Shown piece by piece: positions 2,699 through 9,025 of a stretch of DNA of 28,985 bases. The position numbers and the translations under genes are program-made. The first letter of the stretch is position 1; every line of letters begins with the position of its first letter. The notes under the pieces were generated by a model. It was not told the DNA's origin and did not search any database. It saw only the letters and a program-made list of their open reading frames with translations. This DNA comes from Candidatus Thorarchaeota archaeon. GTDB lineage: Archaea > Asgardarchaeota > Thorarchaeia > Thorarchaeales > Thorarchaeaceae. The stretch lies in assembly GCA_011364905.1 (NCBI GenBank), contig RDNZ01000038.1, forward strand, positions 1-28,985, given 5' to 3'.

Positions 2699-3383
2699 TC
2701 AGATGTGTCACTAGTTTCAGCACTTTTCGATACTCATGTTCAATGTATATAATGCCGTATACAGCTTCTATGAGCGTACCTTTGTCATGGTTCTCCTCTA
2801 ACTTGCTTGGAGTATCCGGATCAAAATGGATTCGATACTCGTACAGTCCCCATTTGTCGCACAATTTGGCCATGTTCTCATTACTTACGATATCTGCTTT
2901 TCTTTGGGTGATTCTACCCGCATCTGCAGCACGAGGCTTCCACAGATGTTGCAGGACAGCTGATGAAACAACCGCATCGCCTATCAATGCCAGGACTTGC
3001 GCCATCTCGCTAAGGTTTATCATCTCGGCAAATTCCTCGGAATTGAGTGGGGCGTTTTCACTTGCGTGATATTGCGTTTCCAGTTCCAAAAACAGATTCT
3101 TTGTACTCGGTTGAAACATAGCCATTTGGAAGAGCTCAATATGTTCGAAGTGAGTTTCTAGAGTCTTTTCTAAATATGGTACTAGTACTTCTCTAATCCT
3201 CCTAAGACTCTCCTGTATTGAACGAAGTTCTAAAAGCCACTTATCGAATTTTGTTAACAGTCTCGTGTTGTTCTTAGCTGTTTCTCTTTGAGTTTCATGT
3301 ATTGCTCGGGTTATGATGTCAAGTTTATCCTCGATGTGTATTGGAACCCAAGATATAGTTGGAACTGAACCATCATCCTTCAT
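2685..3383 (-). CDS. Ribonuclease III-domain protein without dsRBD (Mini-III-like signature)
   Basis: VLALIGDAVV (RNase III signature), KADIVSNENMAKL, GTLIEAVYGIIYIE; protein ends right after the nuclease domain. ATG 3383 is preceded by SD-like GGAAGTGA and lies 13 nt after the upstream stop. Confidence 0.82.
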   Translation of the reverse strand: MKDDGSVPTISWVPIHIEDKLDIITRAIHETQRETAKNNTRLLTKFDKWLLELRSIQESLRRIREVLVPYLEKTLETHFEHIELFQMAMFQPSTKNLFLELETQYHASENAPLNSEEFAEMINLSEMAQVLALIGDAVVSSAVLQHLWKPRAADAGRITQRKADIVSNENMAKLCDKWGLYEYRIHFDPDTPSKLEENHDKGTLIEAVYGIIYIEHEYRKVLKLVTHLINTR

Positions 3384-3396
3384 AGTGTCACTTCCA

Positions 3397-4173
3397 TTAG
3401 TAATAACTGACTTCAGCATCTGAAGCATCATAGTGCGAAACTTGGAATGCTGTGGTGTTATACTCAGTTGCTAACTTTGCCATCGCCAGTGTGATAAGAG
3501 GCGGACCCAGTGTCAAGTCAAACACGATATTGTAGTCTGAGAGATGATTAAGAATCTCATTCTCCAGGAACTCGTATGTCTTCTGCAGATTACCATAATC
3601 ATGGTCTTTCTCTCCGCCCATCACCTGTTCCGGTACCTCTTTCCACTCAGTTGTCCACACACGGAACGCATCGTCCGGGATGAAACGATCCATGATTCGG
3701 GAAACCCCTCTTGACCAGTGCACCGCCTCAACAAAGACAAGGAGCTTTTTCGGGTTATAATAGGGATTATTCACAAGCCATTGTACGAAAGGGCGCTGGT
3801 CCTCAGGATTATTCAGCGAAGTAATATACATTAGTGGTTTTGAGATACCAAGTGCCTTGCGGACTGGATGTATTGCTCGTGGTTCCAGCTCGAAAAGGCG
3901 GTACTGAGATTGTTTCCAGCTTACTATGATTCCCAACTCTTCGAGTCTTTGTGTGTTATGATAGAGTTTCGGACTTGTAACCTTGACCTTTGCGATTTCC
4001 TTTCTGCTCGCACCTTCCGCCACCATTCGCGCCTTGATGTCTGTGGCAATCTTCTCCCTGAGTTCGGCGCCTGTCATCAGTCCACCTTCAAGCTGGTCGA
4101 GGATAATCCTTCTCGCTCGAACTGTCTGGATCTCTTCACGGACGACCTCCTCAACGGGTTTTCTGAGCATCAT
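3397..4173 (-). CDS. Transcriptional regulator: N-terminal winged HTH plus C-terminal CARF-like Rossmann domain (inverted Csa3-like)
   Basis: wHTH: RRIILDQL..G.MTGAELR...SPKLYHNTQRLEELGII. C-terminal LMYITSL...PKKLLVFV...NLQKTYEFL...NIVFDLTLGPPLITLAMAKLA matches the CARF secondary-structure pattern and the Csa3-type DLTxG motif. Confidence 0.7.
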   Translation of the reverse strand: MMLRKPVEEVVREEIQTVRARRIILDQLEGGLMTGAELREKIATDIKARMVAEGASRKEIAKVKVTSPKLYHNTQRLEELGIIVSWKQSQYRLFELEPRAIHPVRKALGISKPLMYITSLNNPEDQRPFVQWLVNNPYYNPKKLLVFVEAVHWSRGVSRIMDRFIPDDAFRVWTTEWKEVPEQVMGGEKDHDYGNLQKTYEFLENEILNHLSDYNIVFDLTLGPPLITLAMAKLATEYNTTAFQVSHYDASDAEVSYY

Positions 4174-4424: not shown

Positions 4425-5564
4425 ATGGCTGAAGACGAGTTTCTTGGCGCAAAACCAATTGTCATCGACAATGGTACTGGTTTGAGTAAGAACGGTTACG
4501 CCGGCGAAGATCAGCCACGCAGCGTCTGGCCCACACTGATTGGTTACCCACGGTACGAGTCAATCATGACTGACGTGGACCACTATACACGTGACTACTA
4601 TATTGGTGAAGAGGCTATCAACCTCCGTGGTGTTCTCCGACTGGTCTATCCGATCTCTCACGGAATCGTAGAAGACTGGGATGCTATCGAGAAGATATGG
4701 AGCTACACGTTCTATAACGACCTCAAGGTAGACCCAAGCGAGAACCCGGTGCTCCTCACAGAGGCACCATTCAACCCTAGAGAAAACAGAGAGCGCATGG
4801 CATCAGTCATGTTTGATAACTTTGGCGTGCCAGCAGTGTATGTTGCCACACAGGCAGTACTGTCACTGTACGCATCCGGTCGAACCACTGGTCTGGTCAT
4901 TGACTCAGGCGATGGTGTCACCCACATAGTACCTATCTATGAGGGCTTTTCAATCAATCACGCCATCAAGAGGATTGACCTGGCTGGTAGAGATATCACC
5001 GAGTATCTGCGCAGACTCCTCAGACAGAGGGGCTACTCATTCGTGAGCGGTGCAGAGAAAGAGATTGTCAGAGACATCAAGGAGAAACTATGTTACGTAG
5101 CCCTTGATCCCGAGAGGGAGAGAACCGTCGCTGACAAGGCCGGTGTTGACAAGCCCTACATGCTACCAGACGGTGAGGTAATCACCATTGGTGCAGAAAG
5201 GTTCCAGGCACCCGAGCTGTTCTTCAATCCAAGTGCCATTGGTCTAGATACAACACCACTCGACGATCACATTGTCGAGTCAATCAAAGCCTGTGACGTC
5301 GACTTGAGGCGTGACCTATACGCCAACGTCGTACTTTCAGGTGGCTCAACCATGTTCCCAGGGCTCAAGGAGAGACTCCACAAGGAGATCACCGAACTGG
5401 TCCCAGAGAACATCGAGGTCCGAATCATTGCTCCTCCAGAGAGGCAGTACTCTGTCTGGATTGGTGGCAGCATTCTCGGCTCACTGAAGACCTTCCAGAA
5501 GATGTGGGTTTCCAAGAAGGAGTTCGAGGAAGTCGGACCAGAAGTCATACACCGCTGTATCTAG
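4425..5564 (+). CDS. Actin (Asgard, eukaryote-like)
   Basis: 379 aa; [107 protein letters not shown]-terminal HRCI. Confidence 0.98.
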
Positions 5565-5616
5565 TATACTCTAGTTTCCGAAGAGGGAGGAATCCCTCTT
5601 CGCTCTCTTGTTTTTC
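5541..5616 (+). repeat. 76-bp direct repeat, copy 1 (actin 3' end plus terminator)
   Basis: Identical base by base to 6195-6270. Confidence 0.97.
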
Positions 5617-5620
5617 TTAT
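5579..5620 (+). terminator. Hairpin plus pyrimidine/T tract downstream of actin
   Basis: Perfect 10-bp stem CGAAGAGGGA-GGAA-TCCCTCTTCG (5579-5602) followed by CTCTCTTGTTTTTC. Confidence 0.8.
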
Positions 5621-5690
5621 TTTACTCTCTCTTGATTCACTGAATAATTTATTATGTTCTCTTCTTTCACTACTCGCAGTGGCATGTAAT

Positions 5691-6146
5691 ATGTCAGAAG
5701 ATTGGGATGAATCAGTAACTAACCAAAACTCCGTGTCGAATCAAAATGAAGCAAGAATGAATAAACGGAGAGTCTTCGTAATTGATGCAAACATAATATT
5801 TGGAATGTGCTTTTTCATTCTGGGTCTTTGGCTAACCACTCAATACATTTACTATGTTCCTCTACCTCCTTTCAATATTCTAATGTTTTGGGGCAGCTAT
5901 AGAGCAAAATACAGTGAATTTCAAGAAATCATTAGTAAAGGTTCAACTCCAAAAACCAACACGGGTCTAGACATGATTGCATTAGTTGGAAATATGACTC
6001 TACTAATCTTGGTGATACTTGTCCTAGGATTCCCACCTTATGATTACTTGACAACCCTTGTTATTCCGCTGTTTATGATAACTATGGTCACATTTGAAAA
6101 TCTTGGTTCATCTTTTGCTTTCATTAGAATTACTGGACATACCTAG
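5691..6146 (+). CDS. Hypothetical small membrane protein
   Basis: Three to four hydrophobic segments; visibly AT-rich; TTTATTA box about 35-40 nt upstream of ATG 5691 (ORF track starts at GTG 5679). Confidence 0.7.
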   Translation: MSEDWDESVTNQNSVSNQNEARMNKRRVFVIDANIIFGMCFFILGLWLTTQYIYYVPLPPFNILMFWGSYRAKYSEFQEIISKGSTPKTNTGLDMIALVGNMTLLILVILVLGFPPYDYLTTLVIPLFMITMVTFENLGSSFAFIRITGHT

Positions 6147-6194
6147 TGATAAACTAAAATGAATCTTCCAAGAGCGCACGAAAAAGTAAGGCCC

Positions 6195-6270
6195 GAAGTC
6201 ATACACCGCTGTATCTAGTATACTCTAGTTTCCGAAGAGGGAGGAATCCCTCTTCGCTCTCTTGTTTTTC
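6195..6270 (+). repeat. 76-bp direct repeat, copy 2 (includes second terminator hairpin 6233-6256)
   Basis: Identical to 5541-5616; lies between two convergent membrane-protein genes. Confidence 0.97.
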
Positions 6271-6278
6271 GTTTTCTA

Positions 6279-6809
6279 TTAGTGCTTTTCATCCATCAAA
6301 TGTTCTTCTTCAACAGAATCATCCTTCAAAACTTCCTGTTTTCTCTCTGCTATCTTCATGCTAACAAGACCAAGCACGAATTGAAATGGCAAGGGGCCAA
6401 TAAACACACCCCCAGCTCCAAGCAGAATTTCAATTGGAATCATTATAAATCCTGCAAAAGCATATGGAATAAACAGGCTCAAGACACCTATTGCAATGAC
6501 CCAACGTTTGTTTCTTGGATCTATGCTGTAGATTGTAACCAGCAATGCATAGGCAATGAAGAAAAATAACAGAAGCCCAACAACCACCAAATACCCTGGT
6601 CCCGTACTCCATCCTGATGGTGTTGTGCCTCTTGATGGATCATAGGCACCAAATAGGAAGAGGTACAAGGGCTCAACACTCCAAATATCTCTACCATAAT
6701 GTGACTCATATGAAAATGACGATGGGAAGGTGACCAGTGGTGTCAATATTGTGACAATCCACATAGAAACAAGACTTAGTTTTAGTTGCCATCGACTTAA
6801 CGAAATCAT
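6279..6809 (-). CDS. Hypothetical membrane protein
   Basis: About four hydrophobic segments, GPLPFQFVLG near the C-terminus, acidic tail. ATG 6809 preferred over TTG 6821. Confidence 0.75.
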   Translation of the reverse strand: MISLSRWQLKLSLVSMWIVTILTPLVTFPSSFSYESHYGRDIWSVEPLYLFLFGAYDPSRGTTPSGWSTGPGYLVVVGLLLFFFIAYALLVTIYSIDPRNKRWVIAIGVLSLFIPYAFAGFIMIPIEILLGAGGVFIGPLPFQFVLGLVSMKIAERKQEVLKDDSVEEEHLMDEKH

Positions 6810-7075
6810 TCCCACGCCCAATGCTTACTTGTCACGAGTGGCTATAAGTATCACGACGAATTTACTCCTATCGGGTGTTGTTGGTGACTTGTTCCTGGCA
6901 ATTAAGAGCACATCTTCATGTTTGATGGTAGTTGATGAAATCTCTCATTCTACAATGCAAGTCAAAATTGAAATCAATAGAAGTTGGATTCAAAGGGGTA
7001 GACCACAGTGTCTGGAGTACTTGCATCTTTGAACTCGGGTTGCAAAAACACATTCGCATCACACTCTCTTGGAAC

Positions 7076-7615
7076 TCACTCTGTTTTCTGAGCTTTGTGA
7101 GCACTCCCCAACCTAAGGAGAAACGAAACCTGTCCTATGTGCATTGCTTCATGCTCTATCAAGTGAAAGAGAATCCATTCCACACTCACCTTTTCACCAT
7201 CAACTTCAATGATAGAATCAAGATCTTTGTCCTCAAAAGTCTTCAAAAAGGCGGATACCTCTTGCCGGACTTCCCTGAGTTTAGAAAGATAGAACTCTAT
7301 GTCCTTTCCCTCTATCTGGTCTATTCCTTCCCTAACAGAAAATCCGTATTTCCACTTCTCATATTCCATCTCCTGTCCACCAATATCCTCAAAGATCCAG
7401 CTGTATTCGATTGCAGCAATGTGAAGAAGTAGGGTGCCAATGGATTCAATCATCTTAGGTTCTGGCGTGTAATCGATTGTTCTATCTGAGAGTGTTTCTA
7501 CTCTTCGTATTAGATTCCCACGAACTCTCTCCATCATCGAATAGAACAACGCCACACGAGGAGCTAACTCATTGCTTCTATCCAAAGCAACAACTTGTTC
7601 TGACTCTTCGGACAT
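7076..7615 (-). CDS. DinB/DUF664 family protein (bacillithiol-transferase-like four-helix bundle, not DNA polymerase IV)
   Basis: SIGTLLLHIAAIE and WILFHLIEHEAMHIGQ carry the metal-binding His triad. Confidence 0.88.
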   Translation of the reverse strand: MSEESEQVVALDRSNELAPRVALFYSMMERVRGNLIRRVETLSDRTIDYTPEPKMIESIGTLLLHIAAIEYSWIFEDIGGQEMEYEKWKYGFSVREGIDQIEGKDIEFYLSKLREVRQEVSAFLKTFEDKDLDSIIEVDGEKVSVEWILFHLIEHEAMHIGQVSFLLRLGSAHKAQKTE

Positions 7616-7833
7616 GTTTCTCAACCACAAAATGAGTTTACCGTTTTGCTATTTGATGGTATGGTCTGAGTGCAAAACATCTTGTAAAATGTAAAAGAAG
7701 GGATTGAAGGCTTCCTATTCGAATTGGTATCGCACTACACAAGACTTTCCCTTTGATTCCCTTTGTTTTCTGATTAGTTGTCCAGCAAGCATATATCATC
7801 TAGATTCAATAAGGCTCAACATAGGTGCTCATC

Positions 7834-8370
7834 ATGAACCGTATTGTTCAGTCAAATCCATCCGATCTAGAGCAATTGGAGAAAATCATAGGCGACTTAC
7901 TAGCGAGTATCATAGACTTTTTTTCACAAATTGAATCTCCAAATGTGGAGAAGGGCAACGATTTCATTTCCCTCATAACCGCATTTCCAATCTTTGCAAT
8001 GACAACGGAACTGGCTGTTCTAAAGGCGGACTCCGAAGGTCGGAATCAGCTCTCAGAAACTTGGAAAGCAGCCCGAGAACGGATGAAGGATATTCCGGTA
8101 CCCTGTGGATTTGAACCTCTCACCGCGAAGATAATCGAAAGACGCGGAAAATGTGATGTATACAAGGTAGGTGATACATTCGAGATTGAGAGTCCCTTCT
8201 ATTGGCCCAAGGCTTGTCCCGCAATATGGTTCTCAGCGTGGCCATTCCTAATCGCTGCTGGATTTGGTTTCGAGGGATGGGAGGGAGATAATCCGTACAT
8301 GTACAGGATTTCCTGTCCCTCGAAACTAGGTGTCGTAGTTGAATTCATTCAAACGAAGCGACTTCAGTAA
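7834..8370 (+). CDS. Hypothetical protein with C-terminal TIGR04076-like Cys domain
   Basis: GKCDVYKVGDTFEI...ACPAIW...ISCP..GVVVE pattern. Confidence 0.65.
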   Translation: MNRIVQSNPSDLEQLEKIIGDLLASIIDFFSQIESPNVEKGNDFISLITAFPIFAMTTELAVLKADSEGRNQLSETWKAARERMKDIPVPCGFEPLTAKIIERRGKCDVYKVGDTFEIESPFYWPKACPAIWFSAWPFLIAAGFGFEGWEGDNPYMYRISCPSKLGVVVEFIQTKRLQ

Positions 8371-8386
8371 ATGCACGTCTTACTAT

Positions 8387-9025
8387 TCAACTTGAAGTGC
8401 GTGCCATGTGACTCCCGTGTCCAATGACCCAAGCTAGGATTGGATATATCGCCCATCGTTCCATTGATCCTTTTGCCATTCCAAGAAAGGTGTCAGTTGC
8501 ACCAACTGGAAGCCCAAGATAAGGGATGAAGATGATTACTGCGATTAAGGTTAGTGATCCGAGAATAACCGAGATGTATGATATCGGTGAGCTCTGAATA
8601 CTATACGACGATATTGCTGCAAGTGCACCAAACAAGATGGCAATTAATGTGAAGATGCTGTGCCATGGTTGAAAGGGATATGGAAACACTCCGACTCCCA
8701 TGGCCCCAATCCCTGTAATTGCAAGTAGAAATGATTGAACTCTGCTCTCAATGGACTTCACAATGAAATAAGACCCCAGCATCAGACAGAGTCCTAAGAG
8801 AAAGACTGATCCATTGTAGATTAACGCAGTTGGTCCAACTCCAAGGTCACTTACGTAGTCAATTCTACTACTATACCCTGGATCCCATGACTCAGCAAGG
8901 AGCAAGCCCAAAAACCATTGGATGCCTCCTACATATATTAGAGTGCCTCCAAGTTTCGCTGAAACAGTTCCAGATGACTTGTCCTTTTTTGCTTGCAGAT
9001 TCTCTGTGTTTTCGTTTTTCAACAT
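8387..9025 (-). CDS. DUF998 family membrane protein
   Basis: PGYS...YVSDLG, GVGVFP...H, GSMERW motifs with several TM helices. Confidence 0.8.
   Translation of the reverse strand: MLKNENTENLQAKKDKSSGTVSAKLGGTLIYVGGIQWFLGLLLAESWDPGYSSRIDYVSDLGVGPTALIYNGSVFLLGLCLMLGSYFIVKSIESRVQSFLLAITGIGAMGVGVFPYPFQPWHSIFTLIAILFGALAAISSYSIQSSPISYISVILGSLTLIAVIIFIPYLGLPVGATDTFLGMAKGSMERWAIYPILAWVIGHGSHMARTSS

Follow-up and report, generated by a model that had tools for sequence, protein, structure and literature searches.

Why should the 3′ end of an actin gene occur twice, 654 nucleotides (nt) apart, in the genome of an uncultured Asgard archaeon? The question is raised by contig RDNZ01000038.1 of Candidatus Thorarchaeota archaeon (assembly GCA_011364905.1), the whole of which (28,985 nt) is the window analysed here, and which comes from a metagenome-assembled genome (MAG, labelled G000) of 3.08 Mb and 81% completeness. 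An original prediction made from the letters of this DNA had proposed that the conserved actin 3′ end serves as a landing site for small gene cassettes. We consider it probable that the repeated stretch delimits a single cassette in an array of gene cassettes that is anchored on actin and spread through the genus, and that the cassettes move by recombination between copies of a repeat unit, R. The recombination is probably carried out by the homologous recombination of the host. R, about 106 nt long, begins with the last ~51 nt of actin and its stop codon, followed by a hairpin and a T-run; its profile was built from 20 loci.

A repeat search of the window returned a single direct-repeat family (5525–5624 / 6179–6278, spacing 654 nt), of which the identical core is 76 nt long (5541–5616 = 6195–6270) and encloses 578 bp. 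The exact 76 nt span the actin codons E-V-I-H-R-C-I, the stop TAG, CTAGTATACTCTAG, the hairpin and the T-run; by our own estimate the chance expectation for such a repeat in 29 kb is ~1e-37, and only two copies are present in the whole 3.08-Mb genome. Together with the analysis of open reading frames (ORFs), this search confirmed the predicted exact duplication around 578 bp carrying one membrane-protein gene, and the predicted identity of the target as actin was borne out by its Pfam match (Table 1). The GC content of the enclosed gene is ~35–37%, versus ~51% for actin. To the left of the second exact copy, ~27 nt of degenerate, in-frame actin-like sequence are present (EKVRP vs EEVGP), with 17/28 matches in this left arm versus 76/76 in the exact part (Fisher p = 1e-7), indicating that the repeat unit measures ~106 nt and is mosaic: in the second unit, R2, an old, diverged left arm is joined to a perfect right part. 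The complete unit starts near −51 (codons KKEF...), takes in the stop codon, the near-palindrome and the 10-bp hairpin, and extends to CTCTTGTTTTT. A possible decayed third copy further downstream matches weakly, and in the alignment it keeps AGAAGT.GGA, TACT and CTCTCTTG at the correct spacing.

A DNA search of 40 relatives revealed one to three additional copies of the actin tail behind actin in most same-genus genomes, and at least one distal R copy was present in 16 of the 18 informative genus genomes (named Candidatus Thorarchaeota). An exact-pattern scan retrieved 35 metagenome contigs, with arrays in 13 of the 17 informative ones, along with 25 contigs of MAGs named Candidatus Thorarchaeota or Promethearchaeota, produced with many assemblers. 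Behind actin, one to six further R copies were found per array, up to a maximum of seven copies in total (L047, L054), and all copies were direct and on the actin strand, in the genus genomes as well as in the metagenome contigs. The unique copies amounted to 30 proximal and 39 distal ones. No actin-tail repeats were detected in the 12 other Asgard lineages examined, one of the same order included. The same ~106-nt tail bounds cassettes genus-wide, which supports the proposal of a landing site at the actin 3′ end. Among 56 R copies, one base pair of the hairpin is AU in 28 and GC in 26, suggesting that the hairpin is structured and kept via compensatory changes.

Actin is conserved in every genome of the genus. 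Upstream of it, gene order in the genus follows a strict synteny (HD protein, RNase III, a winged helix-turn-helix (wHTH)/CARF-like gene, actin). Downstream of actin, 14 different orders of the common families were observed among 16 loci, and orientation relative to actin was constant in 25 out of 25 recurrent families (those seen three times or more). Cassettes mostly hold one to four ordinary accessory genes, on both strands, and three- to four-gene cassettes exist; their genes appear to have promoters of their own. The gene next to the window's cassette, of family f08, lies immediately behind actin in L019, L024, L025, L031, L047 and L070, and comes second in the window, after that cassette, and in L018, after one with a nitroreductase. 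The window's f08 is 43–48% identical to f08 of L018, L019, L024, L025, L031, L047, L057 and L070. The nitroreductase cassette itself stands in slot 1 of L018 and in slot 2 of L023. In five genus relatives and in further metagenome contigs, f08 follows actin directly, without the window's cassette, and relative to these genomes the window's cargo would be an extra unit in the actin-proximal slot. As an outcome that would speak against it, the original prediction had named relatives with one unchanging gene order and neither empty nor alternative alleles; those in which f08 directly follows actin show otherwise. The families of the older variable region further downstream (DinB-family gene, 181-residue ORF and DUF998 gene) were found in other orders in relatives, and R-flanked in some genomes.

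Turnover was also seen between close strains. From actin on, L047 and L073 agree at 99.7% of positions over 5.2 kb, up to a break inside the hairpin of an R copy; past this break they have different cassettes and a different DUF998 allele, and then again they are 99.4% identical. L047 and L052, in which actin is only 93% identical, nevertheless have in common a cassette block of 1.75 kb with 99.1% identity. In a tree built from the 5′ part of actin (27 distinct sequences), the hairpin type behind actin switches at least 8 times, sisters included, so that the sequence just past the stop codon has been exchanged together with the first cassette.

The cargo protein of the window (family f48, 151 residues) has 3–4 hydrophobic helices and no Pfam match. 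It was an orphan in a word-indexed search, which returned no relatives; an exhaustive HMMER search returned 12, each of about 150 residues, and relatives were also located in R-bounded slots behind actin, in G002 and in L130, the latter from another population. Elsewhere, cassettes encode enzymes (nitroreductase, short-chain dehydrogenase, GNAT acetyltransferase, APH-like kinase, metallophosphatase, NUDIX hydrolase, thioesterase, peptidases) as well as a citrate-type transporter, ABC transporters, a deaminase-TPR protein, a radical-SAM/HD protein, a DUF433/DUF5615 toxin-antitoxin pair and small membrane proteins. No Pfam match was obtained for small ORFs of unknown function in first slots.

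Comparable arrays occur at other genes of the same genome. Behind the 16S rRNA gene (L082, G000:C24:4252-20730), seven direct copies of a ~95-nt 16S trailer are distributed over 15 kb, with cargo that comprises an ABC-2 transporter, an AsnC-type regulator, a CAAX protease, a beta-helix protein, a BNR protein and a Na/Ca exchanger, and with no integrase in the array. Such 16S-trailer arrays were present in 28/28 genus genomes, with up to 11 copies per genome. The 3′ parts of three tRNA genes are likewise duplicated (Table 1); no integrase was found in these tRNA-Leu, tRNA-Val and tRNA-Cys duplications, and their architecture matches that of the actin array.

A mechanism can be proposed from these arrangements. 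Each cassette is bounded by direct R copies, of which the one joined to actin completes the actin reading frame and would supply its terminator, and the distal ones are non-coding and decaying. A circle or a foreign array segment with one R would recombine with a chromosomal R, often that at actin, and such an integration would leave a chimeric R on either side; recombination between two direct R copies would delete or excise the intervening cassettes. In the window, a single-gene cassette (5617–6194 plus R2) sits in the actin-proximal slot, ahead of the f08 membrane-gene cassette. We infer that the enzyme would be the host homologous recombination machinery, that circles would be the intermediates and that R would act as a transcription terminator.

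As to the process, the original prediction had named two alternatives, a recombinase acting in trans and capture driven by homology, and the evidence leans towards the second. Several observations, taken together, favour host homologous recombination. Identity tracts between R copies vary among arrays, the block replacement between L047 and L073 starts in R and ends beyond the DUF998 gene, and one 99%-identical tract begins inside a cassette gene. The presence of several anchors, the failure to find an enzyme, the variable identity tracts and the exchange tracts ending outside R thus favour the machinery of the host. Chimeric repeats, variable breakpoints and no element-borne enzyme are what was found, a combination that is compatible with host homologous recombination and not exclusive to it. 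On the other side of the balance, the evidence consists of assembled sequence, and the integration of the window's cassette is read from the contig; a recombinase acting in trans is possible because 81% completeness leaves room for missing genes and bins often fail to include mobile elements; the best-conserved core, GAAGTSATACACCGCTGTATCTAG, and the sharp, reproducible edges of R fit a dedicated recombination site; and homologous recombination alone leaves the first acquisition of a flanking R by a new gene unexplained. Furthermore, gene conversion between old copies, and not a recent insertion, could account for the 76 exact nt, and the alleles with an empty site belong to other species instead of the window's own population.

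Those features of R lead to the rival that survives best, which we nevertheless regard as unlikely: R would be the attachment site of a trans-acting site-specific recombinase that either comes from a family not yet recognised or has its gene on a plasmid or virus missed by binning, and the crossover would fall within the palindromic core where the actin reading frame ends. On this view the array would be either a genuine analogue of an integron or a line of elements that have no integrase and are mobilised in cis. In many independent copies R has its edges at about −51 and just past the T-run, and the shared direct orientation of all copies fits this proposal as well. Within R, the core with ATACA-CCGC-TGTAT is kept at 90–99% in the non-coding copies, according to a profile built on 39 distal ones, a conservation that is partly biased, the metagenome loci having been retrieved by the core 18-mer; the inverted repeat at 5547..5560 is a possible recombination core. 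Identity tracts between R1 and the next copy all include −23..+1 in the four arrays inspected (window, L018, L021, L029), and the compensatory changes in the hairpin and the new cassettes at the actin-proximal slot in the window and L018 point the same way. As to the enzyme, the original statement that the window holds no integrase stood, and it now extends to the whole MAG, in which tyrosine and serine recombinases, Y1 and IS110 transposases and Cas1 (PF00589, PF00239, PF01797, PF01548, PF01867) gave no match, whereas control genomes scored as expected in the same profile searches. In neither the cassettes nor the 81%-complete MAG was the cognate integrase of an attL/attR-type element found, and no recombinase or nuclease was found among ~70 scanned cassette and neighbouring ORFs. 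Tyrosine recombinases (PF00589) were present in only 8/28 genus genomes, on short contigs (L037–L046) from which R is absent. The core 18-mer of R had no match in 2.9 million viral contigs, and no free element with an attP-like site was found. It also counts against a dedicated recombinase that a breakpoint between close strains falls within the hairpin of an incomplete R devoid of the core, and that several anchors per genome (actin, 16S, three tRNAs) would require several specificities.

A nuclease-driven homing process, of the kind of the yeast WHO elements at FBA1 or directed by a guide RNA through TnpB, is much less probable still. A cut near −51 would be repaired by copying in a donor tail with its cargo, and the old tail would be displaced downstream as a relic. 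The arrays agree with the WHO model (Coughlan et al. 2020, PMC7282813) in that 3′ fragments of a highly expressed gene have been displaced, that these share a left edge and that the unit nearest the gene is the newest; TnpB-like genes are common in the genus, one of them inside a 16S array (G010:C54). However, no nuclease or TnpB gene was found in any scanned actin cassette, and G000 has neither a TnpB above the Pfam cut-off nor Cas1. An RNA-guided nuclease directed against the actin tail was rejected as a candidate: no guide-like match of ≥16 nt to the tail was found elsewhere in G000, and in five TnpB-rich genomes all occurrences of the tail motif lie in actin arrays (G015:C181 being an array fragment). 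Third-position diversity in the last 120 nt of actin is 0.16–0.25, versus 0.3–0.43 in mid-gene, the opposite of the WHO signature; the 51-nt actin tail is too short for a tree test of replacement. Near-identical strains, moreover, differ in cassettes at internal slots too.

Least credible of all is that the window's duplication is no integrated cassette, being instead a free 654-bp circle, or a strain variant with the same 76-mer, misassembled into the chromosome, or an old inert scar kept identical by gene conversion: the contig does come from a metagenome bin, a 76-nt exact repeat is within assembler k-mer range and many related contigs terminate exactly in R, showing that the locus is difficult for assemblers, but the degenerate arm left of copy 2 and the unique flanks match distal copies in dozens of independent MEGAHIT/SPAdes assemblies with various k, array copies that are merely 80–95% identical cannot be graph artefacts, and a free circle would still carry R and so support the same system. 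The one contig with R at both ends, L064, was considered as a circular cassette and rejected; it has no terminal overlap and is therefore an array fragment.

The array was then compared with known systems. Tycheposon islands of Prochlorococcus reportedly grow by tandem accretion of integrative elements at tRNA/tmRNA 3′ ends, are strain-variable and include some units without integrase. The actin array resembles such queues in its direct repeats, which are derived from the 3′ end of a conserved gene and of which the proximal one regenerates the target gene, as in a 3′-end integrative element, and further in its queued cargo, its integrase-less units and its strain-variable content. It differs from them in being anchored on a protein-coding gene, in an archaeon, and in having no integrase or mobile-element hallmark gene in ~45 actin arrays. 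The 3′ end of a conserved protein gene, aEF-2 for instance, is also where casposons and other archaeal elements integrate; casposons encode Cas1 together with a polymerase and produce target duplications of ~14–15 bp. Their target, the 3′ end of a conserved, highly expressed archaeal protein-coding gene, is similar to ours, whereas Cas1 was not found in G000 and the actin-array repeat is ~106 nt long.

With integrons, the sedentary chromosomal ones included, the array has in common small cassettes separated by a structured repeat of ~60–140 nt, the kinds of cargo (acetyltransferase, phosphotransferase, nitroreductase, toxin-antitoxin), and a shuffled order with kept orientation and new cassettes at the proximal end. 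On the other hand, the actin array has no IntI: PF00589 was unmatched in G000 and no integrase gene adjoins the array. Its R copies are the tail of the anchor gene and, by eye, do not look like attC sites with paired R″(RYYYAAC)/R′(GTTRRRY) and L″/L′ boxes; some contain GTTTAAC, with no complementary R′ box seen and with the local 10-bp hairpin present. Integron cassettes are mostly single, promoterless ORFs in one orientation that share a promoter; here genes lie on both strands and multi-gene cassettes exist. The insertion point, finally, is inside or at the end of a coding gene. Integrase-less attC clusters (CALINs) are described in Archaea, enriched in Asgard genomes, by Ghaly et al. 2022 (PMC9668308), and the word 'actin' did not occur in the supplementary files searched. 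WHO elements reside at the aldolase gene FBA1 of Torulaspora/Lachancea yeasts, where each unit encodes a homing endonuclease and the 3′ part of the target shows raised diversity (Coughlan et al. 2020). The actin arrays are like them in the displaced 3′ fragments of a housekeeping gene among inserted genes and in a replacement tail that keeps the gene intact; they differ in that no nuclease was found and diversity is not raised at the actin 3′ end. The actin array thus shares its geometry with tRNA-end queues, integrons/CALINs and WHO clusters, and fails a defining feature of each. In a full-text literature search, no paper was found in which actin serves as a site of integration or of cassettes.

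The genomes of Asgard archaea are large and rich in genes, many of them acquired; how these are taken up and sorted is poorly understood. The genus-wide array anchored on actin, together with those at 16S and tRNA genes, points to a general, directional route of gene flow that docks on the most conserved sequences. Returning to recombination between R copies, we tentatively suggest, with more doubt than for the array itself, that this is gene capture without a dedicated integrase, in which the tails of the most conserved and most highly expressed genes (actin, 16S rRNA, several tRNAs) would serve as homology anchors and cassettes would be popped in and out, reordered and passed between species; any enzyme involved would represent an undescribed recombinase family. 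If homologous recombination alone is at work, an integron-like gene collection can arise without an integrase; if the process is enzyme-driven, a new site-specific recombinase with a ~100-nt target is implied. Either way, the actin locus offers a compact marker, of a size suited to the polymerase chain reaction, of strain-level gene turnover in uncultured Asgard populations.

Table 1. Features of the actin array in the window (positions on its forward strand) and duplicated tRNA 3′ parts in the same genome (genome:contig:positions); aa, amino acids
Feature	Position	Strand	Remarks
Actin gene, 379 aa	4425..5564	+	Pfam PF00022, 444 bits; array anchor; last ~51 nt form the left part of R
R1, actin-proximal repeat unit	5513..5620	+	nhmmer 108–121 bits
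Inverted repeat ATACA-CCGC-TGTAT in last actin codons	5547..5560	+	best-kept stretch of distal R copies
Near-palindrome CTAGTATACTCTAG in R1	5561-5574	+	
Actin stop codon TAG inside R1	5562-5564	+	
R1 hairpin	5579-5602	+	10-bp stem, GGAA loop
R1 T-run	5611-5615	+	
Candidate TATA-like A+T-rich box AATAATTTATTA, upstream of cargo gene	5643..5655	+	from sequence only
Cargo gene, family f48, 151-aa small membrane protein	5691..6146	+	sole gene of the cassette
R2, second repeat unit	6169..6275	+	88 bits; degenerate left arm 6169-6194, exact copy 6195-6270
R2 hairpin	6233-6256	+	within the exact copy, with T-run
Next cassette gene, family f08, 180-aa membrane protein	6279..6821	-	
Possible decayed third R copy, between f08 and DinB-family gene	6979..7045	+	weak: nhmmer E = 0.009, 10 bits, model positions 16–83
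DinB-family gene	7076-7630	-	older variable region (7076..9025)
Unknown 181-aa ORF	7825-8370	+	older variable region
DUF998 gene	8387-9025	-	older variable region
tRNA-Leu 3′ part, duplicated	G000:C7:41370-41865 (L084)		44 nt, 452 nt apart, enclosing a 116-aa membrane ORF
tRNA-Val 3′ part, duplicated	G000:C31:6705-8693 (L085)		around a small insert
tRNA-Cys 3′ part, duplicated	G000:C25:58591-62033 (L083)		around a small insert

Several further observations were made on individual loci. In L061 (742–1343), an R-bounded cassette consists of a DUF433/DUF5615 (PIN-like) toxin-antitoxin pair; toxin-antitoxin modules of such kind stabilise large chromosomal integrons. In L017 (G015:C244, 2110–10320), large cassettes behind actin encode a 498-residue cytidine-deaminase-TPR protein, a four-gene block without Pfam matches and a 1038-residue HD/B12-binding/radical-SAM protein, which may represent defence-like cargo. 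TnpB-like genes were counted in 19/28 genus genomes, with up to 45 copies, and in the 16S array of L102 (G010:C54) a TnpB-like gene of 407 residues (2872–4095, minus strand) lies between trailer copies 2477–2568 and 4496–4588. PF00589 had no match in 20/28 genus genomes, several of them 92–97% complete, and these Thorarchaeota may have no recognisable XerA-type recombinase.

Constraint at the nucleotide level on the last five actin codons was also considered; their third positions are invariant, but a run of equal length occurs elsewhere in the gene, so that the pattern is not significant. In one clade (L051, L057, L060, L080), actin appears as two ORFs (111–124 plus 255 residues), and by tblastn it spans ~1197 nt for 379 residues, indicating that ~57 nt are extra, with a stop or frameshift inside actin, which an insertion, a small intron or an error in assembly might explain. 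The wHTH/CARF-like gene on the other side of actin (3397–4173, minus strand) was considered as the recombinase of the array and rejected, since it flanks actin in Asgard lineages without arrays; no paralogue of it adjoins the 16S array. Divergent from actin, it keeps its position in distant Asgard lineages (L087, L089, L090, L096; 23–35% identity), which suggests an ancient regulatory link to actin and not to the array.

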